A DNA stretch of 64,000 bases from Candidatus Portnoybacteria bacterium RBG_19FT_COMBO_36_7 (GCA_001819495.1 MHMW01000028.1:5398-69397), one strand, 5' to 3'; positions 3,916-42,113 are shown, counted from the stretch's first letter. Notes: generated from the sequence alone by a model not told the origin. A program made the numbers and translations.

Positions 3916-4106
3916 ATGGACTTTGCTTTTTTAATACATTCAAGGACTATACTGATGTTCAGAGAAAATTTAAAGTTGCAAAATATCTCCCTAAATCCTG
4001 GGTAGAATTTTGGTGTCTGCATTGGCCGCCAGTGGTGGTGTCTAAAATTGACGGGCTGAAAGATAAAAAGGAGGAGATAAAAAAATCTATTGATTACTGT
4101 GTATAA
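3916..4106 (+). pseudogene. Degenerate, frameshifted copy of the 'mini-gene' repeat (MDFAFLIHS... start plus DYTDVQRKFKVAKYLPKSWVEFWCLHWPP body plus Lys/Glu-rich tail).
   Basis: About 120 bp is nearly identical to 8440-8560. The ATG frame stops after 24 codons because of a 1-nt indel relative to the 8440 copy. Confidence 0.4.
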
Positions 4107-8439: not shown

Positions 8440-8717
8440 ATGGACTTTGCTTTTTTAATTCATTCAAGGGATTATACTGATGTTCAGCGAAAATTTAAAG
8501 TTGCAAAATATCTCCCTAAATCCTGGGTGGAATTTTGGTGTCTGCATTGGCCGCCAGCCGCGAACTGAAAATGGTCGAACTTAAAAAGAAGATAAAAGAG
8601 ATGGAGGGAAAACGGGAAAAGATTAGTTCATATGAAACTAGACCAAATAATAAATTTAATATTAGATTATATATCCATGAAATGGTTAATGTTATATATA
8701 TTTTGATGTATGAATAA
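8440..8717 (+). pseudogene. 'Mini-gene' repeat copy. It reads MDFAFLIHSRDYTDVQRKFKVAKYLPKSWVEFWCLHWPPAAN*, then, in the +1 frame, ...SRELKMVELKKKIKEMEGKREK... (ORF track 8535-8717). It looks like an internally deleted relic of a sensor gene.
   Basis: Its 5' end is identical to the sequence preceding gene 20447. Its 3' tail is homologous at DNA and protein level to the C-terminus of 20447-21598 and of 2184-2810. Confidence 0.45.
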
Positions 8718-15052: not shown

Positions 15053-16177
15053 ATGTTACCTGATTATATAAAAAAGAACATAATTCATGATGACAAAGTA
15101 TTCGCTTCTTTTAAAAACAGAGGGTCTTTTAATATACCATCATATAATCCAAAAGAACATTACAAGCATTTAACGAATAGCAAATATTATTATGCTCTTA
15201 TCGCGTTTAGACATCATTTGAAATCAGTTTCAGATTATTATTTCGGCATAAAGCAAAGGGCAAAGAATATTGACCTTTTTATGCTAACTCCGAGTATATC
15301 TTCTCCGATGGGCCCTGGATCTAGCTCAGAACCAATCAAAATACAATTAGGCAAGATAAAAACTTGTCTTGTAGATTCGTCACAATTCGGCCTCGAACCA
15401 CTCCTCTTAAATAAATCTAATAAAGTATATTGCTATCTACCTTCCATGCGGGGGGAGGACTGTGACCATCGACATCTTAATCAATTCTATCACTGCGAGT
15501 TTGAAATGATTGGTAAATTCGATGAATTGGTGCCTATTATTGAAGACTACATAAAACACCTGTCTGCCGCTATTTTGCTGATGCGAAATATTGTAGATAA
15601 AATCAGCGGCGACCCAACAAAAACAAAGGCAATGATGATAAAAATAATAAAAACAGATAGATTTCCTGAAATTTCGTTTGATGAAGCGACGAACATCCTC
15701 ATAAAAAATAAAGGGGAAAATTATGTAAATATCACGCGTCACGGAAAAGATATCAGCTGTCAAGGAGAAATAGAAATCATGAAAGCTTTAAAAGTTGATA
15801 CGCCTTTATGGATTAGATATTTTGACCGAGACAGGGTTCCTTTTTATCAAAAACCAGATCCTAAAAGCCCCAACAAAACCATAAATGCCGACCTGCTTTT
15901 CCCTCCAATTGTAAAAAATTCTTTTGGCGGTGAAATTGTCGGCTCGGGGCAAAGACAGGATTCTCCTAGAGAAATACATGAATCGTTAAAGAGACAAAAT
16001 AATATCTCCCCAAAACCTTACGAGTGGTATATCAATTTACGGAAATTGCCAGGATATAAAACAACATCGGGATTTGGGCTGGGAATAGAAAGATTTATTG
16101 CTTGGGCCCTAGCCAAGCAAAACATCAGAGATGTTATTTTGTATCCCCGAATTAAAAATGTTGAAACTTATCCTTAA
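15053..16177 (+). CDS. Class IIb aminoacyl-tRNA-synthetase catalytic-core paralog lacking an anticodon-binding domain (AsnA/AS-AR-like or EpmA/PoxA-like amino-acid ligase).
   Basis: Motif 2-like MRGEDCDHRHLNQFYHCEFEM (compare FRxE....RHLxEF..E.E) and motif 3-like GFGLGIERFIAWALAKQNIRDVILYPR. Confidence 0.55.
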   Translation: MLPDYIKKNIIHDDKVFASFKNRGSFNIPSYNPKEHYKHLTNSKYYYALIAFRHHLKSVSDYYFGIKQRAKNIDLFMLTPSISSPMGPGSSSEPIKIQLGKIKTCLVDSSQFGLEPLLLNKSNKVYCYLPSMRGEDCDHRHLNQFYHCEFEMIGKFDELVPIIEDYIKHLSAAILLMRNIVDKISGDPTKTKAMMIKIIKTDRFPEISFDEATNILIKNKGENYVNITRHGKDISCQGEIEIMKALKVDTPLWIRYFDRDRVPFYQKPDPKSPNKTINADLLFPPIVKNSFGGEIVGSGQRQDSPREIHESLKRQNNISPKPYEWYINLRKLPGYKTTSGFGLGIERFIAWALAKQNIRDVILYPRIKNVETYP

Positions 16178-16193
16178 TCATCAACTAAAACAT

Positions 16194-17261
16194 ATGCCTC
16201 AATCAGAAAATAAAAAATGGCATTGGCAATTAAAAAACAGCATCAAAACGGGTGAACAATTGGCAAAATACATAAACCTAACAGATAAAGAGAAACGAGA
16301 CATAAAGAAAGTTACTGAAACTTATAAAATGTCCATCACCCCCTATTACGCTTCACTTATGGATAAAAACGATTCTAATTGCCCCTTACGAAGAATGGTT
16401 ATACCTAATATCGCCGAACTAGATAGTCCACCCGCAATACCCGACCCTAACAAAGAAAAGTCTTTTGAAAAGGCCACGGGCTTAAGACAAGAGTTTAAAG
16501 AAAAATGTACTATCCTGCTGACTTTAATGTGCCCCAATTATTGCAGGCACTGTTTTAGAAAATATTGGGTTGGAAGAGTGAATAGTGTTTTAACCAACCG
16601 ACAGATAGATGAAGTGGTGAAGAAGATTAACAGCAATAAAAACATAGAAGAGGTATGTATTTCTGGGGGAGATCCGCTTATTTTGTCTAATGATCGTATT
16701 GACTACGTTTTAACCAAGCTCAAAAAAATTAAGCATGTTGATGTTGTAAGATTATATACTAGAACTTTAGTATTTCTGCCACAAAGAATAACTGATAATT
16801 TAATAAAAGTCCTTAAGAAGTACCCAACACTCTATATCTGCACCCATTTTAATCATCCAAAAGAACTGACTAAAGAATCAATAGCCGCCTGCAGAAAAAT
16901 AGCAGATAATGGAATACCTATTTTTAATCAGTCAGTTTTATTAAAGGGGGTCAATGATAACTCCAAAACGATGAAAGATTTGCTTTGGGGCTTAGTAAAA
17001 AATAAAGTAAAACCTCTTTACCTTCAACATTGCATAAAAACTATGGGTAATGACTATTTAGTTACTAAAATAGATGTAGGACAAAAAATTATCAAAGATC
17101 TTTATTGCCATATGTCTGTATTGGGAATCCCTCTATATGATGTTATTTTATATTCAGGCAAGGTTTTAATGATGCCCGACTACGTAAAGAAAGATAAAAA
17201 TGGAAGGCGATTTTTTACTAATTTACTCGAGGAAAAATTTTACATTGATAAATTAGAATAA
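16194..17261 (+). CDS. KamA-family radical SAM aminomutase (lysine 2,3-aminomutase / EpmB-like). The ORF-track start at 16131 overlaps the upstream gene; ATGs at 16158 or 16194 are the plausible starts.
   Basis: CPNYCRHCFRK (KamA-type CX3CX2C with CRHCFR), WHWQL...ITPYYASLMD N-terminal KamA signature. Confidence 0.75.
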   Translation: MPQSENKKWHWQLKNSIKTGEQLAKYINLTDKEKRDIKKVTETYKMSITPYYASLMDKNDSNCPLRRMVIPNIAELDSPPAIPDPNKEKSFEKATGLRQEFKEKCTILLTLMCPNYCRHCFRKYWVGRVNSVLTNRQIDEVVKKINSNKNIEEVCISGGDPLILSNDRIDYVLTKLKKIKHVDVVRLYTRTLVFLPQRITDNLIKVLKKYPTLYICTHFNHPKELTKESIAACRKIADNGIPIFNQSVLLKGVNDNSKTMKDLLWGLVKNKVKPLYLQHCIKTMGNDYLVTKIDVGQKIIKDLYCHMSVLGIPLYDVILYSGKVLMMPDYVKKDKNGRRFFTNLLEEKFYIDKLE

Positions 17262-17269
17262 TAAATTCT

Positions 17270-18454
17270 ATGGAGAATTTTGAACATGTAAAAAAAGAAG
17301 GTAATTTGCCCGAGGAATTTGAACAAGGGGAAATTTTTAAGTATCAAGAATTTATTAAACAAACCTATATTGAAAGTTTTTCAGAAAAAAATTTTAGCGT
17401 CCATGAAAGCATAGATCTGGTAGCTGGCAAAACAGATTCCAGTATTTTATTTATCGGTTCAACAATAAGTGCATTAAAACCTTTATATATGAATAATGAA
17501 ATTCCGCCAAACGGGGTTGTAATCAATCAACCTTGTATTAGAACTCATAATTTAAAAAATATATATTCCGAACAGTCTAATAAAGGTAATACTTTTTTTA
17601 ATCTTATGGGCGGCATGTCAGAAGCAGATAGATTTTCAGATATCTACAAATTGTCTTTACAGTATTTTATTGAATCCTTAAATATTAATCGCGATCGTCT
17701 TTTTATTAGGGCTACTTCCGAAGATAAAGATATTTTGGAAAATTTAAAATCCGAAAAAGATCACCCAGAGTTAGAGTTGGATGGGAGACAACCGGATTAT
17801 TATAGATGGAGATATGGTATCAAGGGTGTCTCTGGCAGAGGAATTGCCCTTGCAATTCGTAATGCTGTTAATCAAAAAGAATCTATGACATTGGGTAATA
17901 TTATTATTATGGAAAGCGATGATCACCCCAAAACTGTTCAGTGGGGATACGGAGTTGAATCAATAATTAGCGGCATTTACAACAAAGATAGAGCTATTGA
18001 AGGATCTTTAATCAGCCAAGTGGTGCCATATGAAATTGGTCTAAAATCAAAATTCGCAGATGCATTGGCAGCAGTAATAGAAATGTACAATTCGGGATTG
18101 AAGCCAAACAACCGAGGAGCCGCCAGCTATTTGAAGGCTTATCTTAGAGGAATGTCCTATCTGATAAATAAATTAAATATTGAAAAAAATACACTAAAGG
18201 AGTACGTTTCGGAGTATTGTAAATTAAGAAACATCAATGATGCAGGCTTTATTTACGATGAAATAGTTAATGGCATAAACGACCACGATGATAGTGTTAA
18301 TAAAATGGTTCAAGCTTTGAAGGAAAAATATCTGTCTGAAACGAAAAAAATAACTAATTCAAAAAAGGCAGTTAATAAACTCAGCAATAAATATAGGATA
18401 CATCCTGAGGAAGTAGTAATTATTATAGATAATTTATTTGCAAAAAAAGATTAA
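17270..18454 (+). CDS. Stand-alone alanyl-tRNA-synthetase catalytic-domain-like protein, with no editing or C-terminal domains.
   Basis: QPCIRTHNL...NTFFNLMGGMSEADRFSDIYK aligns to the AlaRS motif QKCIRT.D...HHTFFEMLGN.SFGDYFK. Confidence 0.45.
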   Translation: MENFEHVKKEGNLPEEFEQGEIFKYQEFIKQTYIESFSEKNFSVHESIDLVAGKTDSSILFIGSTISALKPLYMNNEIPPNGVVINQPCIRTHNLKNIYSEQSNKGNTFFNLMGGMSEADRFSDIYKLSLQYFIESLNINRDRLFIRATSEDKDILENLKSEKDHPELELDGRQPDYYRWRYGIKGVSGRGIALAIRNAVNQKESMTLGNIIIMESDDHPKTVQWGYGVESIISGIYNKDRAIEGSLISQVVPYEIGLKSKFADALAAVIEMYNSGLKPNNRGAASYLKAYLRGMSYLINKLNIEKNTLKEYVSEYCKLRNINDAGFIYDEIVNGINDHDDSVNKMVQALKEKYLSETKKITNSKKAVNKLSNKYRIHPEEVVIIIDNLFAKKD

Positions 18455-18467
18455 TAATTTTTATGAT

Positions 18468-19232
18468 ATGAAAATAATAGTAGCAATCAGCGGGGGAGAA
18501 ATAGGTAGGCCTGGCTATCCTGTCGAGACAACAGAAATTGACAAAGAAATAATAAAATTAAGCGGGAAAAAGAGAGCTAATTTGCTTTTTATTCCCACAG
18601 CCAGTTCTGATGCAGAAGGATATGTAGAAACTGTAAAAAAACATTTTGGCGAAAGATTGGGTTGTAGGGTTGATGTACTGTATTTAATTAATTCAGGTAT
18701 AGTCAAAAAAGAAATTGGAAAAAAGATTTTTTCCTCAGATATTATTTATGTTGGTGGAGGGAATACATTAAAAATGCTCAAAGTCTGGAAAAAAAATGGT
18801 GTAGATAAAATTTTGAAAAGGGCCTGGAAACGAAAAATTGTTATATCTGGATTGAGCGCAGGGGCAGTTTGTTGGTTTAAATATTTTAACTCAGATTCAA
18901 AAAAGTTTATAAAAGGAAAGAATAATTATCAATTAATAAAATTAAAGGGATTAGGTTGGCTAAACGCATCTTTTTGTCCCCACTATGATACGGAAGAAAA
19001 AAGAAAACGCCATTTAAAAAAAATGATGTTAAAAACACCGGGAATCGCTTTGGCTGTTGATAATTGCTGTGCGGTAATAATAGAAAATGATAAATATCAA
19101 GTGATATCATCAAAAAGGACTGCGAATGCTTATAAAGTATTCTGGTTGAACAAAAAATTCTATCAAATAAAAATAAAAAAAGTGAAATTGTTTAAGCCAC
19201 TAGGTGAATTGCTTAAAAAAACAAATATTTAA
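18468..19232 (+). CDS. Peptidase S51 (PepE dipeptidase E / cyanophycinase family). The ORF-track start at 18438 is a TTG; I prefer the ATG at MKIIVAISGG.
   Basis: IPTASSD...IIYVGGGNTLKMLKVW...ISGLSAGAV, the S51 Ser nucleophile context. Confidence 0.65.
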   Translation: MKIIVAISGGEIGRPGYPVETTEIDKEIIKLSGKKRANLLFIPTASSDAEGYVETVKKHFGERLGCRVDVLYLINSGIVKKEIGKKIFSSDIIYVGGGNTLKMLKVWKKNGVDKILKRAWKRKIVISGLSAGAVCWFKYFNSDSKKFIKGKNNYQLIKLKGLGWLNASFCPHYDTEEKRKRHLKKMMLKTPGIALAVDNCCAVIIENDKYQVISSKRTANAYKVFWLNKKFYQIKIKKVKLFKPLGELLKKTNI

Positions 19233-20194: not shown

Positions 20195-20407
20195 TTTAGT
20201 TTATAATGAATCATTAAAAAATCCAAAAAATTAAAACTGGGTGATGAATAATTAAAGAAAAGAGCAAAAGCAGTTTTGACCTAACACTGAAATAGCCTCT
20301 AAAAGGGGCTTTTTCTTTTTAGTTAAAGTTTGGTATAATATAATCAAATTCCCATTTTAGGGCTATATTAATTATGCTAACGACCGAATTTTGGAGGGGA
20401 TATCCAA

Positions 20408-20446
20408 TATGGACTTTGCTTTTTTAATTCATTCAAGAGATTTAAA
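20408..20446 (+). repeat. Copy of the conserved 'mini-gene' 5' end (ATGGACTTTGCTTTTTTAATTCATTCAAGAGA = MDFAFLIHSRD...) directly upstream of the sensor gene; the GGAGGGGA RBS precedes this ATG.
   Basis: The same 30 nt occur at 3916, 8440 and (partially) 6257. Here the frame stops after 15 codons and the annotated gene starts 1 frame off at 20447. Confidence 0.5.
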
Positions 20447-21598
20447 ATGCCCCTAATCAATATCAAATCTCTCATCTTGCTGATCGTCGCGCTGCTCAAT
20501 CTGTCGCTGGGCATTTTGGTGTTCTTCAAAAACAAAAAGGATAAAATAAACATCTATTACGCTTTCACTGCCTGGAGCACTGCTGGCTGGGCATTCGGTT
20601 TGGCTATGTTCTATATGATAAGCGATCTGAATATTGCCCTGCTCTGGTATGAATTAGTCGCTTATGTCTCTGCCGCTTTAATTGGCGCCAGCTTCCTTTC
20701 CTTCTCTTTTGTTTTCCCTTTTGTTAAAGAAAAGCCAAAAACAATCTTTAAAATTATATTTTTCATATTCACTGCTTTTATTCTGGTTATCACCGTCTGG
20801 CCAAAATTAATGATACCCAGAATTGTTGAAAACTCTTGGGGCAGAGGAGGAGAACTAACGGTTTATTACAATTTCTATGTTGTCTATTTCACCATGTGCA
20901 TGATCGGCGCATTCGGCAATTTCATCCAGAAATACAAAAGTGCTGACGAGTCGCAAAAAATCCAAATAAAATATGTCTTTGCCGGAACTCTGACTGCCGC
21001 AATCTGGGGCACATTATGTAATCTTTTCTTGCCCTGGTTCAAAATATATGCGCTAATGTGGGCTGGTCCATATCTTACAGTTGCTATGGTTGGACTAATC
21101 GCTTATGCTGTTCTTAAGCACCATCTGATGAACATCAAAGTCATCGCCACTGACTTTGCCGTTGGGGTAATGGGAGCAATATTATTGATATTGCCTTTTT
21201 TTATGCCAAATAACCTGCTAAGATTCCTAACTGGAGCAATTTTTATTCTATTCTGTTTTTTTGGCTACTATTTGATAAAAACCACTTATGAGCAAGCCCG
21301 GCGCAAAGAAGAAGCCCAAAAAATCGCTATTCAGGAAAGGTTTTCGAAAGAAGAGGCGATCTGGAGCGCCCGGCAACTCCAAAGATTCAATGAAACATTA
21401 GAACAAAGCGTTAAACTGAGGACAAAAGAACTAGAACAAGCAAAAAATATTGCAGAGCAAAAGGCCAAAGAAGCAGAAAGCAAAAGAGAAGAGCTCGAAA
21501 AATTCTATGAAGTCACTGTAGGCCGGGAACTAAAAATGGCGGAGTTAAAGAAAAAGATTAAAGAAATGGAGGAAAAATCAGAGGAAGAAAATAAATAA
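20447..21598 (+). CDS. HisKA_7TM-type membrane sensor protein without a kinase domain. It has an N-terminal 7-TM domain, a coiled coil, and a C-terminal GRELKMAELKKKIKEMEE tail.
   Basis: The TM domain is paralogous to 22252-23862 (FAGTLTAAIWGTLCNLFLPWF...GLIAYAVLKHHLMNIKVIATDFA vs LIGTLATATIGIFFNLLLPIF...GFIAYAVIRHHLFDIKVIATEIF). The C-terminal LRTKELEQAK linker is followed by the RELKM motif. Confidence 0.6.
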   Translation: MPLINIKSLILLIVALLNLSLGILVFFKNKKDKINIYYAFTAWSTAGWAFGLAMFYMISDLNIALLWYELVAYVSAALIGASFLSFSFVFPFVKEKPKTIFKIIFFIFTAFILVITVWPKLMIPRIVENSWGRGGELTVYYNFYVVYFTMCMIGAFGNFIQKYKSADESQKIQIKYVFAGTLTAAIWGTLCNLFLPWFKIYALMWAGPYLTVAMVGLIAYAVLKHHLMNIKVIATDFAVGVMGAILLILPFFMPNNLLRFLTGAIFILFCFFGYYLIKTTYEQARRKEEAQKIAIQERFSKEEAIWSARQLQRFNETLEQSVKLRTKELEQAKNIAEQKAKEAESKREELEKFYEVTVGRELKMAELKKKIKEMEEKSEEENK

Positions 21599-21607
21599 TA
21601 TATTTAA

Positions 21608-22234
21608 ATGAAAGACAAACATAAAATCTCTTTTTTCTTTTTCTTAAAAGCTTGTTTTAAATTTAGAGCTAGACAAATATCTAGTCCCGAAGAATTGTCA
21701 GCAGCATACAAATTAAGAAAGGTAATTTATTCTGACCTCCTGAAATGGGTATCATGTAACGAAGAACAAGAAACGGATGAATACGATAAATATGCAACTC
21801 ATTTCGGGGTATTTAATAAACATGACGTTGTGGCTTATTGCAGATTAATAATAGCAGTTAATCCCACAATGTTAGAAAATAATTTTAAAATGATTTTAGG
21901 GAAAGAGAAAATACGGAAAGAAAAAGATACTGCTGAAATTTCCCGCCTAACTCTAGACAGAAAGTTTATAGGTAATCGACGCGGAAAAATAATTCAAGCT
22001 CTTCTTTATAGAAAAATTTTTCACTGGTCAAGGCAAAATGGAATTAAATTTTGGTATATAGTAGTCAGAGAAGGATTTTTCAACAATCTAAAAGCTAATT
22101 TTGACTGCCAACAAATAGGAAAAACCTATTATTTCAAAGAAAATGACTCCGCTATTGCGGCAATAATTGATTTACAAAAATCTCTAGAATTTGTTCGACG
22201 AACCAATAAATTTCTATATTGGTGGTATAAATAG
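21608..22234 (+). CDS. LuxI-family autoinducer-synthase-fold protein (acyl-homoserine-lactone synthase-like / N-acyl amino acid synthase-like GNAT).
   Basis: Aligns to the conserved LuxI/LasI blocks LR..VF......W...E.D.YD, CRL...T.P.ML.N.F and E.SRF: LRKVIYSDLLKWVSCNEEQETDEYD, VVAYCRLIIAVNPTMLENNF, TAEISRLTLD. Confidence 0.55.
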   Translation: MKDKHKISFFFFLKACFKFRARQISSPEELSAAYKLRKVIYSDLLKWVSCNEEQETDEYDKYATHFGVFNKHDVVAYCRLIIAVNPTMLENNFKMILGKEKIRKEKDTAEISRLTLDRKFIGNRRGKIIQALLYRKIFHWSRQNGIKFWYIVVREGFFNNLKANFDCQQIGKTYYFKENDSAIAAIIDLQKSLEFVRRTNKFLYWWYK

Positions 22235-22251
22235 CACTTTTAAGCTTAACT

Positions 22252-23862
22252 ATGTCAAGTATATTAACGCCCAATATAGTTTCTTTATTGATAACCACTG
22301 CCTTTAATGTGCTCTTGGCATTTTTTATTTTGTCAAAAAACAGAAAAAGTCCAGTTAACCGAATATTCAGTTTCTTGGCTTTAGGTGTAGCTCTTTGGTC
22401 TTTCACAAATATAGCTACTCAGATCGTAAAAACTGTCCATCAAGGCATTCTTTGGTCACAAATAAGTTATTTAAGTACCCTTATAATTGCGGTCTCTTTC
22501 TTTTTGTTCTCTATTATTTTTCCGGAAGAAGAAAAAATGAGCAAAAGCAGATTTTTTATTCCTGTAATTATTGCCGCGATAGTCACTTCCGTATTATTAT
22601 TCATCCCTAAATTTGTTATTGAAACCGTGACACTTTCTCCTTGGAAAATCATGACTAATCGAGGCGCCTATCTTTATACGGCATCGTTTGTAGGAATGCT
22701 GCTTTTTTCTTTCGGAAATATTTTAAGAAAATATCGCCAACTCAAAGGAGAACAAAAAGCCCAAATAAAATTCGTATTGATTGGCACACTCGCGACAGCA
22801 ACAATTGGGATATTTTTTAATTTATTACTACCGATATTTTTTAATTACTATGGCCTTGTCTGGTTTGGTCCAAACGCCGGCCTAGTCATGGTCGGCTTTA
22901 TAGCTTACGCGGTAATAAGGCATCACCTGTTTGATATTAAAGTAATCGCGACTGAAATTTTCAGTATTTTAATTTCGCTTTCTGCCTTAATTGATGCCCT
23001 ACTTTCGCAGACACCAACAGAATTTACATTAAAATTTCTACTTTTTTCGGCAATTTCTTTGTTCAGTATTCTATTGATTCGGGGAGTCTTAAAAGAAGTG
23101 AAAACTAGAGAACAACTTGCGGCACTAACAGAAAAATTACAAAAAGCAAATGATGATCTGCAAAAATTGGATAAGGCCAAAAGCGAGTTTATATCCATTG
23201 CTTCCCATCAGCTCCGCACTCCTTTATCCGTGATAAAAGGTTTTGTTTCCATGCTGATTGAGGGCTCCTATGGCAAGATTCCCGATAAAGGCAAAGAAAT
23301 TCTGTCCAAAATAGGGGCCAGCTCCGACCGCTTAAACAGACTTATTGACGACCTGCTTGACTTATCGCGCATGGAGGGCGGCCAGATGAAATACGAATGG
23401 AATTTTATCAATCTGGCCGAATTGGCTGGCAGCGTGGTTGATGAGCTCCAGCCCCAGGCCGACAAAAAAGGCATTAATTTCAAATGGCTCAATCAGGCGC
23501 CAGAAAAAATGTTCGTCAGAGCCGACAAGGAAAAATTAAGGCAGGTTGTCATGAACCTGATTGACAATGCCATCAAATACACATCCAAGGGATTTGTTGA
23601 AGTAAAACTGGTCAAGACGCCCGAAAATCAGGCAAGATTATCGGTTAAGGATTCGGGAGTGGGCATGGACCAGGAAGAAATGAATCTGATTTTCGGCAAA
23701 TTCGTGCGCGGCAAAAAAACGCCTCGGCTCTGGACCGAGGGAGTGGGTTTGGGGCTCTATGTGGCGCGCAAAATTTTAGAAGAGCACAAAGGCAGCGTCT
23801 GGGCAGAGAGCGAAGGAGAAGACAAAGGCAGCACGTTCTTTATGGAAATACCGGTTTACTAA
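22252..23862 (+). CDS. Sensor histidine kinase (HisKA_7TM N-terminal membrane domain plus HisKA plus HATPase_c).
   Basis: H-box ISIASHQLRTPLSVIKGF, N-box VMNLIDNAIKYT, G-boxes DSGVGM and GVGLGLYVARKI. The N-terminal 7-TM domain is paralogous to 20447. Confidence 0.85.
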   Translation: MSSILTPNIVSLLITTAFNVLLAFFILSKNRKSPVNRIFSFLALGVALWSFTNIATQIVKTVHQGILWSQISYLSTLIIAVSFFLFSIIFPEEEKMSKSRFFIPVIIAAIVTSVLLFIPKFVIETVTLSPWKIMTNRGAYLYTASFVGMLLFSFGNILRKYRQLKGEQKAQIKFVLIGTLATATIGIFFNLLLPIFFNYYGLVWFGPNAGLVMVGFIAYAVIRHHLFDIKVIATEIFSILISLSALIDALLSQTPTEFTLKFLLFSAISLFSILLIRGVLKEVKTREQLAALTEKLQKANDDLQKLDKAKSEFISIASHQLRTPLSVIKGFVSMLIEGSYGKIPDKGKEILSKIGASSDRLNRLIDDLLDLSRMEGGQMKYEWNFINLAELAGSVVDELQPQADKKGINFKWLNQAPEKMFVRADKEKLRQVVMNLIDNAIKYTSKGFVEVKLVKTPENQARLSVKDSGVGMDQEEMNLIFGKFVRGKKTPRLWTEGVGLGLYVARKILEEHKGSVWAESEGEDKGSTFFMEIPVY

Positions 23863-23867: not shown

Positions 23868-24653
23868 ATGAAATACTTTGAAATTGTAAAATTAAAAGAA
23901 ACTCCGATAATCTGTAATATTCCGCACAGTTCGATTGAAATCCCGCCAGAGTTCAAAAAAGATTTTTCTTTGTCCCAACGGGAATTAAAATTGGAAATAA
24001 AAAGATTAGCTGATCTATATATTGATTCATTTTTTTCAAATTTATTGAATGATCATGGTGGTATAATTTCCAAGGTCAGCCGCATTGTTGTTGATACAGA
24101 AAGATTTTCCGACGACGAAAAAGAGCCGATGTCAAAAGTCGGCATGGGCGCGATATACATAAAGAATGAAGCAGGGGAAACAATTAGGGAAATAGATGAA
24201 GCACGAAAACAAAAACTTCTAACACAAATTTATCAACCATACCATCAGGCGCTAACTAAACTGACAAACGATTGTCTATTGCAATTCAATAAATGCCTGA
24301 TCCTGGATTGTCATAGTTTTCCCTCTGAACCGCGGTCTTATGAATCAGATCGAAATAAAGACAGGCCGGATATCTGCCTGGGCACGGACGAATTCCATAC
24401 GTCGGAAGAATTAAAAAATATTTTCTTTGAGAATTTTAAGTTGGCGGACTTTTCCATCAAAATTAACAGCCCATTTGTTGAAACAATGGTTCCTGAGAAA
24501 TTTTATCAGAAAAATAAAAATGTTTCTTCGATTATGATAGAAATTAACCGCAAACTTTATATGGACGAAAGTACCTTTACTAAAAATAATGTCTTCGATG
24601 AAGTTTCAGACAAGATTTGTATGATTATTAAAGAATCGGTGGAATCTTTTTAA
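23868..24653 (+). CDS. N-formylglutamate amidohydrolase-family (FGase) zinc hydrolase-like protein.
   Basis: NIPHSS...LILDCHSF motif typical of the FGase family. Confidence 0.45.
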   Translation: MKYFEIVKLKETPIICNIPHSSIEIPPEFKKDFSLSQRELKLEIKRLADLYIDSFFSNLLNDHGGIISKVSRIVVDTERFSDDEKEPMSKVGMGAIYIKNEAGETIREIDEARKQKLLTQIYQPYHQALTKLTNDCLLQFNKCLILDCHSFPSEPRSYESDRNKDRPDICLGTDEFHTSEELKNIFFENFKLADFSIKINSPFVETMVPEKFYQKNKNVSSIMIEINRKLYMDESTFTKNNVFDEVSDKICMIIKESVESF

Positions 24654-24656
24654 TAT

Positions 24657-25115
24657 ATGAGAATGAATAAACCAGATCAGACACTAGCAGAAGATTTAAA
24701 ACTCCGAGAAATTCCTGCAGAAGAATTTATAATTCAAAGAGATAAACTTCCTCCGAGCTTGCGTGCATTTTTGGACCCGCATACGAAAGAAAAATATGAA
24801 GAAATGAAAGCGGCTCTTTTTCTATCAGAAGATAATAACAGCGGCTTTGGTTTAAGGCCCGATGGCGGTCTTATATCTGTCTTTTCTTTAGAAAAAGAAA
24901 AAGGACCAAAATTAGTACAAGAAGCGTTATCCCGCGGTGCCAAATATTTAAGCTGCTGCGGGGAGAAACTAAAAGAATTATATGAGGAAGCGGGATTTGT
25001 GATAACTAAACATAAAGATTGGGACCAGGAGTTCGCCCCACCAGACTGGGATTATGAACGATTCGGCACGCCGAACTATTATGAAATGAAATTAAAAAAA
25101 CCGGAAACTAGTTAA
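24657..25115 (+). CDS. Hypothetical protein.
   Basis: 152-aa ORF packed between neighbours. No recognisable motif. Confidence 0.4.
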   Translation: MRMNKPDQTLAEDLKLREIPAEEFIIQRDKLPPSLRAFLDPHTKEKYEEMKAALFLSEDNNSGFGLRPDGGLISVFSLEKEKGPKLVQEALSRGAKYLSCCGEKLKELYEEAGFVITKHKDWDQEFAPPDWDYERFGTPNYYEMKLKKPETS

Positions 25116-25120
25116 ATTTT

Positions 25121-25627
25121 GTGAAAAATATTGAATTAAAAGTGAAAATTAATAGCATCAGAGGTATAGCTGGATTACTGAAAAAACTACACGCAAAGCA
25201 TAGGGGAGTTCTAAAACAAATAGATACATATTATAACGATAAGGAAGGAAGGCTAAAAATCAGGGAAGTTAACGGAAAATATTTTGAAAAGATATTTTAT
25301 AAAAGACCGGATAAGGAATCGTCAAAAATCTCATTCTATACAGTATCTAAAATTAAAAAACCGCAATTACAAAAAGAAAAAAGCTTTTTAAAAAAGGCTC
25401 TTGGAGAAAAAGTCATTGTTGAAAAACAAAGAGAGTTGTGGATATTAAAAAATACTCGCGTGCATTTAGATAGAGTTAAGCATCTGGGAAATTTCCTTGA
25501 ACTAGAAACAGAAGTCGAAAAAGCGGGGAAGAATGCCGAAAGAGAACACAAAGAAATTATAGATCAATTGAATCTTTCAAAATATAAACCTTTCGCCAAA
25601 TCATATAGCGATATGCTGATGAATTAA
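25121..25627 (+). CDS. CYTH-domain protein (class IV adenylyl cyclase / triphosphate tunnel metalloenzyme family).
   Basis: IELKVKI...YY...LKIRE...KR...LELETEV pattern of the CYTH tunnel. Confidence 0.5.
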   Translation: MKNIELKVKINSIRGIAGLLKKLHAKHRGVLKQIDTYYNDKEGRLKIREVNGKYFEKIFYKRPDKESSKISFYTVSKIKKPQLQKEKSFLKKALGEKVIVEKQRELWILKNTRVHLDRVKHLGNFLELETEVEKAGKNAEREHKEIIDQLNLSKYKPFAKSYSDMLMN

Positions 25628-26403: not shown

Positions 26404-27726
26404 TTAGGGGGTAAGCCTATTAACACCCCTATATAGATACGTAACTTCACGTACGTTCTTAAAGCCGAGCAAAACCATTAACATACGCGTAAGCCCGAAT
26501 CCATATCCTCCGTGAGGCGGACATCCATACTTGAAGAAGTCTAAATAGTATTGAATCGATTCAGGCCTGAGGCCTTTCTCTTTAATCTGCTTCAGCAGGA
26601 TATCGTATCTGTGTTCTCGTTGAGCTCCAGTGGTAACTTCAAGCCCCTTCCATATTAAATCAAAGCTTTTTGTGATCGTTGGCTCGTCTTCGTATCTCAT
26701 ATGATAGAACGGCCTGACAGAGATAGGATAATCGGTGACGAATACAAATTCATGTTTATAGTGTTCTTTAATGTACTTGGCAAGCAGTCTCTCTCCTTCT
26801 GGATCCAAGTCACCTTTACTGCCCCTGTCTATCGTATGACCTATCTTTTCCAATATTTTATAAGCCTCTGCCATCTTTATTCTTGGAAAAGGTAAATCTG
26901 GCACGATCACTTCTTCTTTGAACATTTCTTTGATCCGTTCTCCGTGCTCCTCCTTTATACCTTTCAATATTTCATGGAGCCATTGCTCTTCAAGGTGCAT
27001 GACGTCTTCGTGAGATTTAATCCAGGATATCTCCACATCAACACTCGTAAACTCTGTATCGTGCCTTGAAGTAAAAGAAGGGTTAGCTCGAAAAACGGGC
27101 CCGATCTCAAAAACTCTGTCAAACCCTGCTGCCATAGCCATCTGTTTGTAAAACTGAGGTGACTGGGCAAGGTATGCATATTTGCCGAAATATTCGACTC
27201 TGAATAATTCGGCACCGGATTCACTCGCACTTCCCATGAATTTAGGCGAATGGATTTCAATAAATCCGTTCTTGATCCAGAAATTACGCATCTCTTGTTC
27301 AATCGTGGTTTGGACCTGAAATACGAGCAAGTTCGATGGCTGCCGCAAATCTAAGAATCTCCAATCCAGACGATTTTCTAGGGAAGTCTCTTTCGGATCG
27401 ATTGGCAGCGGCGACATGGCTAAATTCAATATTTTGATCTCATCAATCACAATCTCTATCTGTTGGAGTTTCACCTGATCATTTTTAACCACGACCCCAG
27501 AAATTTCAATTGCAGACTCCGACGTAAGACTGTCGATTAATTTCTCGATAGGATCATCGCCACCTTTACGTTCATGAATTGCCTGGACAAGACCCGTTTT
27601 ATCCCGGACAATGATAAATTGCATCTTTTTTTGTTTGCGGATAGCATGAACCCATCCATCAATAGTGGTTTTTTCGTTAATCTTCTCTTTCAGTTTTCCG
27701 ATTAAAGTCCTCTTCATACCTTTCAC
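26404..27726 (-). CDS. aspS: Class IIb aminoacyl-tRNA synthetase, archaeal/eukaryal-type short form, most likely aspartyl-tRNA synthetase.
   Basis: N-terminal OB anticodon-binding fold, motif 2 FRANPSFTSRHDTEFTSVDVE, motif 3 GGYGFGLTRMLMVLLGFKNVREV, and AGGAGGTGA RBS. Confidence 0.6.
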   Translation of the reverse strand: MKGMKRTLIGKLKEKINEKTTIDGWVHAIRKQKKMQFIIVRDKTGLVQAIHERKGGDDPIEKLIDSLTSESAIEISGVVVKNDQVKLQQIEIVIDEIKILNLAMSPLPIDPKETSLENRLDWRFLDLRQPSNLLVFQVQTTIEQEMRNFWIKNGFIEIHSPKFMGSASESGAELFRVEYFGKYAYLAQSPQFYKQMAMAAGFDRVFEIGPVFRANPSFTSRHDTEFTSVDVEISWIKSHEDVMHLEEQWLHEILKGIKEEHGERIKEMFKEEVIVPDLPFPRIKMAEAYKILEKIGHTIDRGSKGDLDPEGERLLAKYIKEHYKHEFVFVTDYPISVRPFYHMRYEDEPTITKSFDLIWKGLEVTTGAQREHRYDILLKQIKEKGLRPESIQYYLDFFKYGCPPHGGYGFGLTRMLMVLLGFKNVREVTYLYRGVNRLTP

Positions 27727-27766
27727 CTCCTATTCAATATAAACAGAAAGTCTAGAAAATGCAAGT

Positions 27767-29095
27767 CTACGGCGCGACTTTCCGCCCAAACGTCCGAAAG
27801 AAAGGAATTGTATCCCGAACATGGGGAATACGTAGAAGCCACCGAATAAATCTTTCAATCCCCATACCAAATCCAATATGGGGGACGCAGCCGTATTGCC
27901 TTAAATCTCGTAACCACTCATATTGAGGATTGCCAAGTTTTCCTTTTTCTTTCATTCGTTCATCCAGCATCGCCAGATCATGAATCTTTTCTGCTACTCC
28001 CAATATTTCTCCAAATCCTTCGGTTGCTATTAGGTCGGCCGTTTTAGTTACCCTCGGATCGTTTGGGTTAATAACGTACGGGAAAGGTTCTACGCTGCGT
28101 GGGATACCGATTACCCAGAAAGGCTTCTGAAAATGATTTGATAAAAAGGCCTCTTCTTCTGTGCCTAAACTTTTACCAAATTCAAATTCAAATCCATTTC
28201 TCTGAAGCAGCGAAACGGCTTCAGTATAGCTAATGCGATCGTAGGGTGTATCTTTCCCAGCATCGCAAAGTATAGATCCCAAAGTTTTTAATAGTTCTCC
28301 CGCTTCTTCGCAGCAACGCTGGGTGACATCTTTTATAAGACTTTCAACAATATACATGATGTCATCCAGATTACCGAACGCAACCTCTGCTTTTAGATGC
28401 CAATATTCCATTAAATGCCTCTTGCTTTTGCTTTCTTCCCCGCGAAAGCTAGGCCCAATGTTATATACTTTCTCAAAAGCATGAACTGCGCTTTCTAAAT
28501 AGAAACCTACGCACTGGGTCAAAAATATATCCTGATCGTGTACTCTTAACGGAATTGCGGATCGGTCTTCATAAAGCGGTGTTGGGGTTAATACTGGCGC
28601 AGTAATTTCAATGAAACCGTTATTGCGAAACCACTGATGTATTATCCCCATAGCTATGTGTCGAAAACGCAATATCGCCATTAATTTTTCATTGCGCAGA
28701 TAGAAATGGCGATTGTTCATCAACTGCTCTTGGATCTTGGGCTCAAAAATATCAATTTCGCCACGCGGTTGCGGAAATATCTGAATTGTGGCCAAACCAA
28801 TAATCTCTATGCGATCAACAGAAATCTCACGCGCTAATCCTGTTCGTATAATCTTCTTCCTCAAAACGCCCTCTACTTTAATTGATGATTCTGGGGTCAC
28901 TTTTGTTGCCACATCGAAGTCACTTGGAATAACTTTTGCCCTTTCTACTACGGCCTGTATACAACCAGTAGAATCACAAATATCAAGAAATATGACCTTA
29001 CCATGCTTTCTCTTTGCCTTTACCCATCCTAATAATACTATCTTAGTATCTAGATTAACTCTTTCTTTCAAATCTACTATATACAGCTCTTTCAT
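27767..29095 (-). CDS. asnS: Asparaginyl-tRNA synthetase (class IIb). I place the start at MKELYIVDL, behind a strong AAGGAGG RBS, rather than the ORF-track 29116.
   Basis: Motif 2 FRGEESKSKRHLMEYWHLKAEVAFGNLDD closely resembles the AsnRS motif FRAE.S.TSRHLAEFWMLEPEVAF; motif 3 GFGMGIERFIRWLL...VRDTIPFPR. Confidence 0.6.
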   Translation of the reverse strand: MKELYIVDLKERVNLDTKIVLLGWVKAKRKHGKVIFLDICDSTGCIQAVVERAKVIPSDFDVATKVTPESSIKVEGVLRKKIIRTGLAREISVDRIEIIGLATIQIFPQPRGEIDIFEPKIQEQLMNNRHFYLRNEKLMAILRFRHIAMGIIHQWFRNNGFIEITAPVLTPTPLYEDRSAIPLRVHDQDIFLTQCVGFYLESAVHAFEKVYNIGPSFRGEESKSKRHLMEYWHLKAEVAFGNLDDIMYIVESLIKDVTQRCCEEAGELLKTLGSILCDAGKDTPYDRISYTEAVSLLQRNGFEFEFGKSLGTEEEAFLSNHFQKPFWVIGIPRSVEPFPYVINPNDPRVTKTADLIATEGFGEILGVAEKIHDLAMLDERMKEKGKLGNPQYEWLRDLRQYGCVPHIGFGMGIERFIRWLLRIPHVRDTIPFFRTFGRKVAP

Positions 29096-29256
29096 GACGT
29101 GCCTCCTTTTATTCATTTTTTAAGAAACTATCAGAATTTTAATCCTCTATAATACTAATTTCATAAAGAATTGTCAATATTTTGTTATGGTTCATTTACC
29201 TATTTAAAATACCTATAGTATAATATAATAAACAGATTAAATCTTAATTAAAACCT

Positions 29257-38079: not shown

Positions 38080-40179
38080 TTGGCTACTCTAACGGTTATA
38101 GCAGTGTCCGCTTTTTTTGTTTTTATCCCAACGCAAACAAAGGCCCAAGACGACGGAGGATCGACCACACCACAACTAGATGAATACGGACAACCAATAC
38201 CAGAGAAAACTTTCGAACAAACCACAGGGACAACTCCGGAAGCAGCAAAAGCAGCAGGCACAGAAGCTGGCAAAAAAGCTAAAGCCAATGGCGGATTGTG
38301 GAGCTGGATAGGCAATATGACTTTTAAGGTCGTCTTTAAACTTATAGACGGGATTCTTCAGGTTGTTTTAACTATTTTTGGCTGGATTCTTTATTTAGCC
38401 GCTGCTTTTCTTGATTTTGTATTAAATAGCAATCAGCTTAACAAGTTTACCAACGCAGAAATTGTCAAAGTCGGCTGGAAAATTTCCAGAGATACGGCCA
38501 ATATGTTCTTTGCCCTGATTCTGCTCATCATTTCTTTTGCCACTATCTTGCGCATAGAAAGCTACGGCATCAAACAAGTTCTGCCCCGCCTCATCATCGC
38601 CGCTCTTTTGATAAATTTCAGTCTAACTATTGCTGGCGTGATTGTTGATTTTTCGCAGGTTTTGACAAAACATTTTATTAATATGGGCGTATCGGGAACC
38701 AATGGCCAGAGTATCGGCACCACATTAGCTGACAAGATGAAAGTTACCCAAGGCGTTCTTAGAAATGCCGAGGAATCCGGTGCCCCACCAATAAACGAAG
38801 GGCTAGACGCTCTTGCCGCAGCTGCTATCGGGCTTTTTGCCGGTATTATTGTCATCTTAATAGCAGCTTTCACTATCTTTGCGGCCGCTATTTTCCTTAT
38901 GATACGTTATATTGCCCTCCTTTTCCTGCTTATATTGGCGCCTCTGGCCTGGTTCTTTTATATCGTGCCCGCCACCAGAAACTACTGGAGTATGTGGTGG
39001 AGCACTTTTCTCAAATGGGTTTTTTTCGCGCCTGCTTACGCTTTTTTCCTTTATCTCTCTTTAGAAATAATCAAAAGCGATCTCATGAAAAACATAGGAG
39101 TAGATTCCAATACTGTTGCGGCCGCAAAGGGATTTGGCCGATATACCCTCCCCACAATAGTTAATTTTATAGTTATCATCGGATTCCTACTTGGCTCTCT
39201 CATTGTCGCGCAAAAATTGGGGGTGATGGGCGCAGGAGCGGCTATGTCCATGGTTAAAAGGTCCGGCAAGAGCGTGGGCAAATTTGCCGCCAGAAAAGGC
39301 ACCGGTTATGACAAGTGGGCTCCGGCAGCAACTCGTCTATCCGGAGCGACCCTCGCCAAAATTCCTGGCTTTAAAAATTTAGGGAAGTCTCTCCAAGGCA
39401 GAGCAATCCAAATGAAAGAAAAAAGGCTTGAAACTCCGCAAAACAAAGCACTACAGAAATATTATAATTCTCTGTCACCAAGTGATCAGCTGGCGGAAAT
39501 GAATAGAGCCAATGGCCAAGCTAAACTTATTGCCACTCAGGCAGCTCAATCCAGCGGCGCATTAAACACCGCCTCTACGGCTGATCTAAAAACAGCGGCG
39601 AATACCTTTAGACAATTTGGCAAAGATAAAGAAGCGCGCGACCTTGAGAATAAACGGCCGGAGATTTCTGTAAATGTAGATTCGGCTATTAAAAAGATAT
39701 CCGAAGAAGGCAATCTTAATTCAATACATGCTCAATCTTTGGATAACCATGAAGTGGTTGAGGCCATTGTAAAATATAATGGGCCGGCAGCAATAGAAGC
39801 CCTTCGGAATAAATCCAAACAACACGAAGACAAACTTGTCCCAACGCTTGAAAAACTTGCCAAGACTCATCCAACAGATGACAAAATTCAGTTTGCATAT
39901 GCGTCTCAGTCTGGCGATGTGTCAAGAATGACTACTGCCCAAAAAGAAGAATGGGCGTCAAAAGCCGGACCGGCAGGACTCTCACGAATGAAAATTACAA
40001 ATGTTTTAGATATAGCGCCTATAGCGGCAAATATACCGCCGAATACTCTACGTAAAATCGTCCAGGAAATGAAAGATCCTACCACTATAAAAATGATTGT
40101 AAATCATGTTATCAGCAATACAAGCACCAAAGCAAATAAAGCCGCCAGTGCCGATCCTTTTATAGCTAACCAGATTTAA
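38080..40179 (+). CDS. Polytopic membrane protein, VirB6/TrbL-like (type IV secretion channel component), with a ~300-aa soluble C-terminal domain.
   Basis: N-terminal signal/TM segment followed by at least 6 hydrophobic helices (e.g. VVLTIFGWILYLAAAFLDFVL, IIVILIAAFTIFAAAIFLMIRYIALLFLLILAPLAWFFYIV). Context: next to VirB3- and VirB4-like genes. Confidence 0.4.
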   Translation: MATLTVIAVSAFFVFIPTQTKAQDDGGSTTPQLDEYGQPIPEKTFEQTTGTTPEAAKAAGTEAGKKAKANGGLWSWIGNMTFKVVFKLIDGILQVVLTIFGWILYLAAAFLDFVLNSNQLNKFTNAEIVKVGWKISRDTANMFFALILLIISFATILRIESYGIKQVLPRLIIAALLINFSLTIAGVIVDFSQVLTKHFINMGVSGTNGQSIGTTLADKMKVTQGVLRNAEESGAPPINEGLDALAAAAIGLFAGIIVILIAAFTIFAAAIFLMIRYIALLFLLILAPLAWFFYIVPATRNYWSMWWSTFLKWVFFAPAYAFFLYLSLEIIKSDLMKNIGVDSNTVAAAKGFGRYTLPTIVNFIVIIGFLLGSLIVAQKLGVMGAGAAMSMVKRSGKSVGKFAARKGTGYDKWAPAATRLSGATLAKIPGFKNLGKSLQGRAIQMKEKRLETPQNKALQKYYNSLSPSDQLAEMNRANGQAKLIATQAAQSSGALNTASTADLKTAANTFRQFGKDKEARDLENKRPEISVNVDSAIKKISEEGNLNSIHAQSLDNHEVVEAIVKYNGPAAIEALRNKSKQHEDKLVPTLEKLAKTHPTDDKIQFAYASQSGDVSRMTTAQKEEWASKAGPAGLSRMKITNVLDIAPIAANIPPNTLRKIVQEMKDPTTIKMIVNHVISNTSTKANKAASADPFIANQI

Positions 40180-40184
40180 AAACT

Positions 40185-41300: not shown

Positions 41301-41339
41301 GTATTTTTGATTTTGATATGTCATTCTGATCTTTGAATT

Positions 41340-41642
41340 TTGATATTTGATAAAATATTTATGCAATTCAACGTCCCCCAGTTTTTGAATATTGAAGACA
41401 AAGTCATCGGTCCTTTTACTTTAAAACAATTCGGCTATCTGGCCGGCGCAGGCGGAGTAATTTTTTTGATATATACGGCAGTGCCAAATTTATTTCTTTT
41501 TATTTTGCTTTCAATTCCCGTTTTTACCTTTGCTGTGGCGCTGGCATTTTTAAAAATCAACGGCCGGCCTTTTATAAACATCATCATCTCTTTTATCATT
41601 TATACAGGCAAGCCCAAACTTTTTATCTGGAGAAAGAAGTGA
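41340..41642 (+). CDS. PrgI/VirB3-like small two-TM type IV secretion protein.
   Basis: MQFNVPQFLNIEDKVIGPFTLKQFGYLAGAGGVIFLIY followed by a second TM helix. Size and topology are those of PrgI/VirB3, and it sits next to VirB4. Confidence 0.45.
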   Translation: MIFDKIFMQFNVPQFLNIEDKVIGPFTLKQFGYLAGAGGVIFLIYTAVPNLFLFILLSIPVFTFAVALAFLKINGRPFINIIISFIIYTGKPKLFIWRKK

Positions 41643-41675
41643 GAACAGCGATCCTAATTTACAAATTACATCCGA

Positions 41676-42113
41676 ATGCTCCGAATACATAAAAAGGTGC
41701 TGCATGCAGAAATATCTTACGAGCTGACAGGAATTTTATTTAAACTTCACAGAACATTAGGCCGTTTCTGCCGAGAAAGACAATATTGCGATAAACTAGA
41801 AGAATTATTAAAAGAAAACAGATTTGAATATAAGCGTGAATATGAAATTAGCAAATTAAAAAATAGTATTCAGGGCGATAAGACAGACTTTTTAATTGAA
41901 AACAAGATTATCCTTGATATCAAAGCGAAGAAATTTATAACAAAAGAGGACTATTTGCAAATGCAACGATATTTGCAGTGTTCAGAATTAGAATTAGGAC
42001 TAATTGTTAATTTTCGCAATACATATTTAAAACCAAAAAGGATATTGAATACAAAATTATATTCGGATAATTCGGATGCCCATTCGGATTATTCGGATCG
42101 CTTTAACAGATGA
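41676..42113 (+). CDS. GxxExxY-family protein (PD-(D/E)xK-like), a selfish/intervening-type ORF.
   Basis: TDFLIENKIILDIKAKKFITKEDYLQMQRYLQCSELELGLIVNF matches the GxxExxY family C-terminal half (DllVe.kvivElKav......aQllnYLk...l.lGLLiNF). Confidence 0.6.
   Translation: MLRIHKKVLHAEISYELTGILFKLHRTLGRFCRERQYCDKLEELLKENRFEYKREYEISKLKNSIQGDKTDFLIENKIILDIKAKKFITKEDYLQMQRYLQCSELELGLIVNFRNTYLKPKRILNTKLYSDNSDAHSDYSDRFNR

Follow-up and report, generated by a model that had tools for sequence, protein, structure and literature searches.

A LuxI-family gene between two HisKA_7TM proteins

We describe a candidate signaling cluster in a 64,000-nucleotide stretch (MHMW01000028.1:5398-69397) of RBG_19FT_COMBO_36_7 (a Candidatus Portnoybacteria bacterium), a stretch referred to hereafter, at its full length, as the window. 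Three plus-strand open reading frames (ORFs), separated by gaps of 9 and 17 bp, place a gene for a LuxI-type synthase between those for two membrane proteins carrying the seven-transmembrane (7TM) domain HisKA_7TM. The ORF positions given in an earlier note, made from the sequence alone, held under ORF calling and Pfam annotation, and the reduced genome of the candidate phyla radiation (CPR) type that the note had suspected is that of a CPR bacterium, Portnoybacteria.

20447-21598, plus strand: HisKA_7TM membrane protein of 383 aa without a kinase domain, with a conserved coiled-coil motif at its C terminus (OGZ33547.1); accessory, outside the conserved pair
21608-22234, plus strand: LuxI-family synthase of the N-acyl-homoserine lactone (AHL) type (208 aa, OGZ33548.1), assigned from Pfam, Protein Data Bank (PDB) sequence matches, residues, and an AlphaFold2 (AF2) model
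22252-23862, plus strand: orthodox histidine kinase with a HisKA_7TM sensor and two further transmembrane helices (536 aa, OGZ33549.1); proposed receptor

The sequence of the downstream protein indicates a catalytically complete kinase. Pfam detected HisKA_7TM (PF16927; 65.7 bits, cut-off 28.6), HisKA (74 bits), and HATPase_c (91 bits) but no receiver (REC) domain. The boxes of the core are intact, with H319 in HQLRTP, N439 in NAIKY, D467 of the G1 box in DSGVG, and G497 of the G2 box in GVGLG. An AF2 model of residues 1-290 (predicted local distance difference test, pLDDT, 80) contains nine helices within residues 7-289. Positively charged loops read from the sequence (KNRKS, EEKMSKSR, RKYRQLKGEQK, and RHH..K) follow helices 1, 3, 5, and 7, which argues for an N terminus outside and a kinase core inside. 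A Foldseek comparison of the sensor with PDB structures gave generic 7TM matches resembling G-protein-coupled receptors only (E ~2.5e-3, template-modeling score ~0.5), which we did not take as evidence.

The upstream protein matched only HisKA_7TM in Pfam (33.6 bits against the cut-off of 28.6). Its 7TM domain shares 31% identity over 328 aa with that of the kinase (E 4e-40), in agreement with the paralogy proposed earlier. The two are nevertheless not recent duplicates: the 7TM region of the kinase-less protein is closer to those of other full-length kinases (50-57% identity) than to that of its neighbor. The protein has no histidine beyond residue 280 and ends in a coiled coil.

Family assignment and relatives of the synthase

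The comparison of PF00765 with TIGR03694 that had been suggested as a check came out in favor of the former. The synthase matched Autoind_synth (PF00765) at 63.0 bits (E 3.5e-17), past the cut-off of 24, whereas TIGR03694, the model of exosortase-associated N-acyl amino acid synthases (NAS), covered residues 21-125 only and, at 55.2 bits, failed to reach its cut-off of 111.95. Acetyltransf_5 stayed under its own cut-off (21 versus 22.4 bits), and the Pfam model FeeM gave no match at E<=1. The NCBIfam TraI equivalogs NF052393 and NF010408, narrow models of proteobacterial scope, scored 57.3 and 51.5 bits, again short of their cut-offs (250 and 292). Calibration of TIGR03694 on the loci fetched for comparison (L001 and following) placed real members at 192-249 bits, a protein of L023 at 132.7, and a LuxR-adjacent synthase (L003) at 78.8. 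Since this last enzyme itself scores higher than the window synthase and real members lie far above both, the 55 bits are no evidence for TIGR03694 membership.

Structural comparisons pointed in the same direction. A PDB sequence search returned LasI, EsaI, and RpaI as the only significant matches, and the LuxI blocks quoted in the earlier note align to these three proteins. The AF2 model of the synthase (pLDDT 84.2, predicted template-modeling score 0.80) found its best folds in LasI, MesI, BjaI, RpaI, and TofI (template-modeling scores 0.67-0.73), with FeeM next at 0.61. Through the PDB sequence-search alignment, LasI residues R23, F27, W33, D44, D47, R70, E101, S103, and R104, in the numbering that we assume for LasI, correspond to R37, Y41, W47, D57, D60, R79, E110, S112, and R113 of the synthase.

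An alignment of all 36 synthase-like ORFs in the fetched loci set limits on what these residues can tell. Seven of the nine LuxI positions (R, D, D, R, E, S, and R) are invariant across the superfamily, NAS-like proteins included, which makes the residue test a weak one for distinguishing AHL from N-acyl amino acid chemistry. At the position of LasI W33, the window clade and all LuxR-partnered relatives have a tryptophan, and relatives resembling TIGR03694 members or FeeM have F, Y, L, or I; at that of LasI F27, phenylalanine occurs in LuxR-partnered enzymes and in L007, and tyrosine in the window synthase, in L001, and in most NAS-like proteins. By sequence, the synthase is thus LuxI-like at the more telling position (W47) and intermediate at the other (Y41). 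The catalytic equivalents that the earlier note had asked for are therefore present, with F27 replaced by Y, but most are uninformative, and the W33 (and F27) positions alone discriminate. Together, the Autoind_synth match, W47, and the AHL-synthase folds support the original view, in which the middle gene encodes a LuxI-family synthase and neither a generic GNAT nor a member of TIGR03694.

An exhaustive profile search of 1.84 billion cluster representatives yielded 2004 relatives of the synthase. Its own clade consists of just two 50%-identity clusters (358 and 327 bits), after which the next match falls to 212 bits; searches of GTDB genomes and JGI metagenomes for close relatives returned no further member of the clade, only relatives at <=37% identity. 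The synthase P0002 is 84% identical to that of the window. Autoind_synth was matched by 148 of the nearest 150 relatives, TIGR03694 by 147, and FeeM by 72. Relatives at 32-37% identity came from metagenome-assembled genomes (MAGs) of Nitrospirae and Smithella and from metagenomes, and seven of these loci carry a convergent LuxR gene (Autoind_bind + GerE) directly after the synthase. In a simple neighbor-joining tree built with capped distances, the window clade (bootstrap 82) has canonical LuxI/LuxR pairs as its nearest outgroup, namely, a group (bootstrap 90) in which seven of nine members have the convergent LuxR.

The window synthase hence shares with LuxI/LuxR systems (LasI, TraI, EsaI, and the non-proteobacterial pairs L009 and L010 from Nitrospirae and Smithella MAGs) the Pfam family, the fold, and the key residues including the LasI W33 equivalent, and it is 32-37% identical to the LuxR-partnered synthases. 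It departs from them in having Y41 instead of F and in its partner: a co-directional membrane histidine kinase fills the position of luxR in the relatives. No LuxR or REC domain was detected at E<=10 among the 676 stop-to-stop ORFs of the window with seven seeds (CheY, Spo0F, PhoB, NarL, two REC proteins and one LuxR from the fetched loci), the same seeds having found REC and LuxR genes in other loci. The lack of both regulator types noted earlier is thus upheld, and with no REC domain detected by these seeds, the partner of the kinase must be encoded elsewhere.

An alternative for the chemistry is that the synthase makes N-acyl amino acids in the manner of NAS enzymes, which the neighboring kinase may or may not sense. 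We consider this unlikely, although several observations lend it substance. N-acyl amino acids are the known products of NAS enzymes in E. coli, and these enzymes have a link to PEP-CTERM systems (PMC4897644, citing Craig et al. 2011). They, FeeM and NasY among them, belong to the same GNAT-derived superfamily, with the R, D, D, R, E, S, and R positions and a similar fold. The TIGR03694 score nearly equals that of the TraI models, but it does not reach half the cut-off, and a bona fide LuxI enzyme with a LuxR partner exceeds it. FeeM is structurally close and, like TIGR03694, is matched by many of the nearest relatives; yet AHL synthases rank above it in the fold search, and the window protein matches neither FeeM in Pfam nor, beyond 21 bits, Acetyltransf_5. 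Y41 fits the NAS-like pattern, whereas W47 is kept as in LasI. NAS-like enzymes of loci L023 and L030 themselves stand beside HisKA_7TM kinases and kinase-less 7TM proteins, but the window clade groups in the tree with the LuxR-partnered set and not with these enzymes, and the window pair lacks the ThiF gene of their modules. The exosortase-associated subfamily that the earlier note had offered as its alternative is disfavored on the same grounds: the missed TIGR03694 cut-off, the LuxI-like tryptophan, and the tree placement. No exosortase occurs among the ~33 window ORFs scanned with Pfam, a scan that was not aimed at exosortases.

The conserved pair, its exchangeable sensors, and its surroundings

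The order synthase-kinase recurs outside the window. It is found in L001 (a 22-kb JGI contig) and L002 (an ENA contig), where the synthase is 79% and the sensor 91% identical to the window proteins, and in L007, with a synthase at 45% and a sensor at 55-57% identity. All other neighbors differ between the window and these loci. The gene upstream of the L001 synthase encodes a GNAT instead of the kinase-less sensor, and a REC gene lies 6 kb upstream of the pair. Conversely, orthologs of the kinase-less protein at 64-66% identity (P0166 and P0167, in L039-L041) have no synthase within 10 kb. A triad of sensor, synthase, and kinase as a co-conserved unit, as first envisaged, was therefore rejected; only the synthase-kinase pair is syntenic.

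Comparison of kinases between loci separated the sensor from the rest of the protein. In the kinase of L039, the transmitter (helices 8-9 and the kinase core) is 79% identical to that of the window kinase and the 7TM sensor only 30%; this gene is flanked by an acyl-ACP (acyl carrier protein)-reductase/PigE-N-like gene and an ATP-grasp gene, with no LuxI gene. P0170 similarly combines a transmitter 80% identical to that of the window kinase with a sensor of the type found in the kinase-less protein (S1-type). Because transmitters this similar (79-80%) carry different 7TM sensors, helices 1-7 act like an input cassette that can be exchanged. In all three known cases, the window-type cassette stands behind a LuxI-like gene. 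Sensor type, not transmitter, tracks the neighboring enzyme, which suggests that the sensor probably reads the product of the synthase. These sequence relationships support a functional link of the middle synthase to the downstream HisKA_7TM kinase rather than to a LuxR.

Across the mosaic kinases P0170, P0169, and L039:15394-16998, transmitters are 69-80% and 7TM sensors 30-39% identical to those of the window kinase, and the sensors of P0169 and P0170 are 56-57% identical to the window kinase-less protein. L039 also contains, at 20584-20763, a 59-aa HATPase_c fragment that shares 91% identity with the C-terminal end of the window kinase and adjoins a gene for a 23S-rRNA intervening protein (IVP) 60% identical to that at window positions 42822-43202. 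The fragment looks like what remains of a window-type kinase that a related genome has lost.

An acyl synthase and a HisKA_7TM kinase also meet in two distant loci with a different enzyme family. L023 (3872-10639) and L030 (792-4903) each encode an N-acyl synthase resembling TIGR03694 members and FeeM (132.7 and 87.5 bits with TIGR03694, respectively), a ThiF-family adenylyltransferase whose gene stands between synthase and kinase, and a HisKA_7TM kinase, which in L023 has two GAF domains and is directly followed by a stand-alone REC gene. One to three kinase-less HisKA_7TM proteins accompany each module. This linkage of NAS-like synthases to HisKA_7TM kinases is independent of that in the window.

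The HisKA_7TM genes of the five sensor-side loci (L036-L041) have no LuxI or NAS gene beside them, and a hidden Markov model search with the clade profile (E<=10) disclosed no hidden synthase in L036-L038. Because the neighbors in L036-L041 are of many kinds, the acyl-synthase link holds for particular sensor clades and not for the whole HisKA_7TM family. L036 (2422-5191) encodes a kinase-less HisKA_7TM protein of 476 aa, 41% identical to the sensor of the window kinase, followed by a pyridoxal phosphate (PLP)-dependent acyltransferase of the BioF/Kbl family that scored 216.6 bits (cut-off 428) on the model of alpha-hydroxyketone autoinducer synthases.

The diversity of these contexts bears on a second alternative to receptor function, i.e., that the synthase releases a diffusible acyl signal for other organisms, such as LuxR-bearing hosts or neighbors, and that the adjacent kinase, instead of being its receptor, answers to another membrane cue by regulating the operon or is just a neighbor in a compact genome. 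CPR bacteria are thought to be episymbionts, and Bernard et al. 2020 (PMC7567580) discuss signaling between species; the nearest relatives of the synthase have LuxR proteins as their sensors, no response regulator lies nearby, and these genomes contain numerous HisKA_7TM genes with neighbors of many kinds. This explanation would nevertheless have to account for an adjacency that holds down to 45% synthase identity while all other neighbors change, for a neighboring enzyme that is tracked by the sensor type and not by the transmitter, and for the independent recurrence of the association with NAS-like synthases. We judge it improbable.

We place the kinase-less protein, on its sequence, in a functional family of its own that neighbors the pair by chance in this lineage. 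P0165, also kinase-less, is 86% identical to it. Across 13 kinase-less homologs (28-86% identity), that of the L030 module included, the last 30 residues of the window protein, ELEkFY.LTvGRElkMaELK.KI.E.E, hardly vary; the motif was not found in full-length kinases, and no Pfam model matched it. Decay from a kinase was rejected in view of this conservation and of the lack of room for kinase remnants before the synthase gene. The orthologs adjoin radical-SAM, PqqD, and C39-peptidase genes or an epimerase gene. The protein carries another type of sensor than the kinase and probably responds to a cue of its own, with the coiled coil as output. Members of this family measure ~340-390 aa, and many are named Paceibacterota/Pacebacteria by NCBI; in the window protein, residues ~320-383 carry the motif, whose longer form reads V.ERTKELE ... 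ELEkFY.LT[VI]GRE[LIV][KR]M.ELK.KI.E.E. The orthologs at L039:5023-9985 and L041:5542-9676 lie by genes reminiscent of ribosomally synthesized and posttranslationally modified peptides, i.e., small ORFs, PqqD, radical SAM/SPASM, C39 peptidase, and methyltransferases, a hint of a possible link between some HisKA_7TM proteins and peptide products.

Further features flank the cluster within the window:

20195-20446, plus strand: intergenic region upstream of the cluster, likely promoter-bearing, with a terminator-like hairpin inside
23868-24653, plus strand: FGase-family amidohydrolase (Pfam FGase 154.6 bits; NCBIfam hutG 56.5 bits, cut-off 279)
24657-25115, plus strand: protein of 152 aa, of unknown type
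25121-25627, plus strand: CYTH/class IV adenylate-cyclase-like protein (Pfam CYTH 67.3 bits; NCBIfam cyaB 42.8 bits, cut-off 58)

The cluster promoter likely lies within 20195-20446, where a terminator-like site (stem plus T-run at 20294-20310, plus strand) ends the preceding methyltransferase gene; a promoter scan gave no enrichment over shuffled sequences (26 found versus 25.2 expected). Gaps of 5, 3, and 5 bp join the kinase gene to the three genes at 23868-25627, which are possibly cotranscribed with the cluster. The related contigs stop within the kinase gene, short of any counterparts of these downstream genes. GC content around the cluster is 0.34-0.38, like the low-GC majority of the MAG (36% by the MAG name).

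Farther upstream, at 15053-19232, the window encodes a short class II aminoacyl-tRNA synthetase paralog (EpmA/PoxA-like, 374 aa) with an overlapping radical-SAM enzyme that we take to be KamA/EpmB-like, a 394-aa protein with only the N-terminal catalytic region of alanyl-tRNA synthetase, and a peptidase S51. Two adjacent full-length genes for class II tRNA synthetases of the Asp/Asn/Lys type (440 and 449 aa), both with anticodon-binding oligonucleotide-binding folds, occupy 26404-29116 on the minus strand. The region at 30000-52000 has a GC content of 0.42-0.49, versus 0.32-0.38 at 8-26 kb, and encodes, especially at 38080-45096, a VirB4/TraG-type P-loop ATPase, a PD-(D/E)XK nuclease, and the 23S-rRNA-IVP, together with a weak TrbL/VirB6-like match (19.5 bits, below the cut-off); it may be an integrated conjugative-type element. 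Plus-strand stretches of 48-51 aa at 3924-4067 and 8440-8592 share 78-81% identity with the N-terminal end of the acyl-ACP-reductase/PigE-N-like protein encoded ahead of the L039 kinase; they could be fragments of genes or an N-terminal cassette that is repeated.

A candidate synthase-kinase circuit

The evidence leads us to favor, with confidence slightly above even, a two-gene signaling module in Portnoybacteria in which a LuxI-type synthase is paired with a HisKA_7TM kinase acting as receptor of its product. The synthase would most likely condense an acyl thioester (acyl-ACP or acyl-CoA) with S-adenosylmethionine to give an N-acyl-homoserine lactone or a close N-acyl analog. In the kinase, helices 1-7 (HisKA_7TM) would constitute the ligand-specific input, and helices 8-9, together with the dimerization/phosphotransfer and catalytic core, the conserved transmitter. 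The hydrophobic product might bind inside the 7TM bundle and switch kinase/phosphatase activity, and a response regulator whose gene lies elsewhere in the genome would then receive the phosphate. Such a circuit would follow the two-component style of autoinducer sensing known from LuxM/LuxN and CqsA/CqsS, with a LuxI-type synthase and, as sensor, an unrelated domain. The nature of the product, its binding by the kinase, and the output are all predictions from sequence.

Several observations weigh against this interpretation. The TraI and TIGR03694 models score the synthase about equally (57 versus 55 bits), both far under their cut-offs, and at residue 41 the enzyme shares Y with NAS-like proteins, where LuxI enzymes with a LuxR partner have F. 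The sister relationship of the window clade to the LuxR-partnered group has a bootstrap of only 59 in the simple neighbor-joining tree. Because the window clade comprises two clusters, the evidence from adjacency rests on three lineages, and the five sensor-side loci without a LuxI or NAS gene show other associations of HisKA_7TM genes. No response regulator is encoded within 20 kb upstream or 40 kb downstream of the pair. CPR bacteria usually have no fatty-acid synthesis, which makes the acyl donor a difficulty for the model, and the literature searched reported no ligand for HisKA_7TM.

The proposed circuit, a plausible one, resembles in its logic that of LuxM/LuxN and AinS/AinR, in which an AHL synthase works with a membrane histidine kinase whose polytopic domain binds the AHL, but it would be made of different parts. 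LuxN is a hybrid kinase with a receiver domain, named a kinase/phosphatase in NCBIfam, whereas the window kinase is not hybrid and has no such domain. LuxN has nine predicted transmembrane helices, with its AHL site between helices 4 and 7, and LuxM has little homology with LuxI (PMC5007282). Nine helices and an outside N terminus are likewise predicted for the window kinase, an architectural resemblance only, and the window synthase differs from LuxM in being LuxI-type. Homology of the sensors to LuxN or CqsS found no support, the only LuxN_Vibrio match being the kinase-less protein at 19.9 bits against a cut-off of 1550. Of the LuxM/LuxN logic proposed in the earlier note, the tie of the synthase to a membrane kinase stands, with pair order kept in L001, L002, and L007, while the likeness appears to be one of analogy and not of homology.

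A second analogy is offered by CqsA/CqsS (LqsA/LqsS), where the synthase gene adjoins that of a kinase with a purely membrane-embedded sensor, six-helix in CqsS (PMC5007282), for a hydrophobic acyl-derived signal. The 41%-identical relative of the window sensor in L036 stands beside an enzyme of the BioF/Kbl/CqsA family; the CqsA family is PLP-dependent and unrelated to LuxI. Many CPR kinases next to LuxI or CqsA homologs match a CqsS-sensor profile in Bernard et al. 2020 (PMC7567580), whose tables caught the window kinase by a HATPase/'QseC' match only and not by the CqsS sensor profile.

That report (mSystems 5:e00414-20) also bears on novelty, which the earlier note had implied. In its Table S4, syntenic group 6, OGZ33548.1 is already listed as a LuxI homolog (PF00765, 62.9) and OGZ33549.1 as the adjacent sensory kinase, and the 18 CPR LuxI homologs that adjoin sensory kinases, this one among them, are proposed as candidate complete quorum-sensing systems (PMC7567580). 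In the text and tables consulted, that report makes no mention of the kinase-less paralog, of HisKA_7TM as the sensor domain, of the pair's conservation in relatives, of sensor/transmitter mosaicism, or of NAS-ThiF-HisKA_7TM modules, and it describes no experiment. No later experimental work on CPR LuxI homologs was found in the literature searched. New here are the calibration of the synthase family, the discriminating residue position, and the conservation of the pair at deep divergence, together with the mosaicism of sensor cassettes, the separation of the kinase-less protein from the module, and the parallel NAS-ThiF-HisKA_7TM modules.

Decay or recent transfer of the cluster, leaving a remnant with no current function, is very improbable: the HATPase fragment of L039 shows that such genes are lost in relatives, and the surroundings of the pair in the window are not those in L001, but all three ORFs are intact, the catalytic motifs are complete, local GC content fits the low-GC majority of the MAG, and protein-level conservation is maintained (91% sensor versus 79% synthase identity).

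The synthase-kinase module could be one instance of a wider arrangement, an extension that we put forward as tentative and, on balance, doubtful. HisKA_7TM, a widespread domain, may serve as a modular membrane receptor for small hydrophobic products of a neighboring enzyme, e.g., N-acyl signals. Interchangeable 7TM cassettes on one transmitter would then be matched in CPR/Paceibacteria to adjacent biosynthetic genes of LuxI type, of TIGR03694/NAS type with ThiF, or of acyl-ACP-reductase-like or BioF/CqsA-like kinds, and the window pair would be the first case of a LuxI-type synthase with a histidine kinase, in place of LuxR, as its reader. Such an arrangement would provide a private two-component quorum-sensing channel for minimal episymbionts.

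To conclude, the window holds a small module, two genes in ~2.3 kb, whose weight is limited by its having been flagged in print and by the level of our findings, which is that of sequence. To our knowledge, every characterized LuxI-type synthase is read by a cytoplasmic LuxR-type receptor, and the known kinase-type AHL receptors, LuxN and AinR, go with the unrelated synthases LuxM and AinS. If the proposed circuit is real, a LuxI-type enzyme wired to a histidine kinase would represent a third way to build AHL sensing and would give the orphan HisKA_7TM domain its first ligand class. It would also mean that host-dependent, ultra-small CPR bacteria run a signal-and-receptor circuit of their own, beyond eavesdropping.

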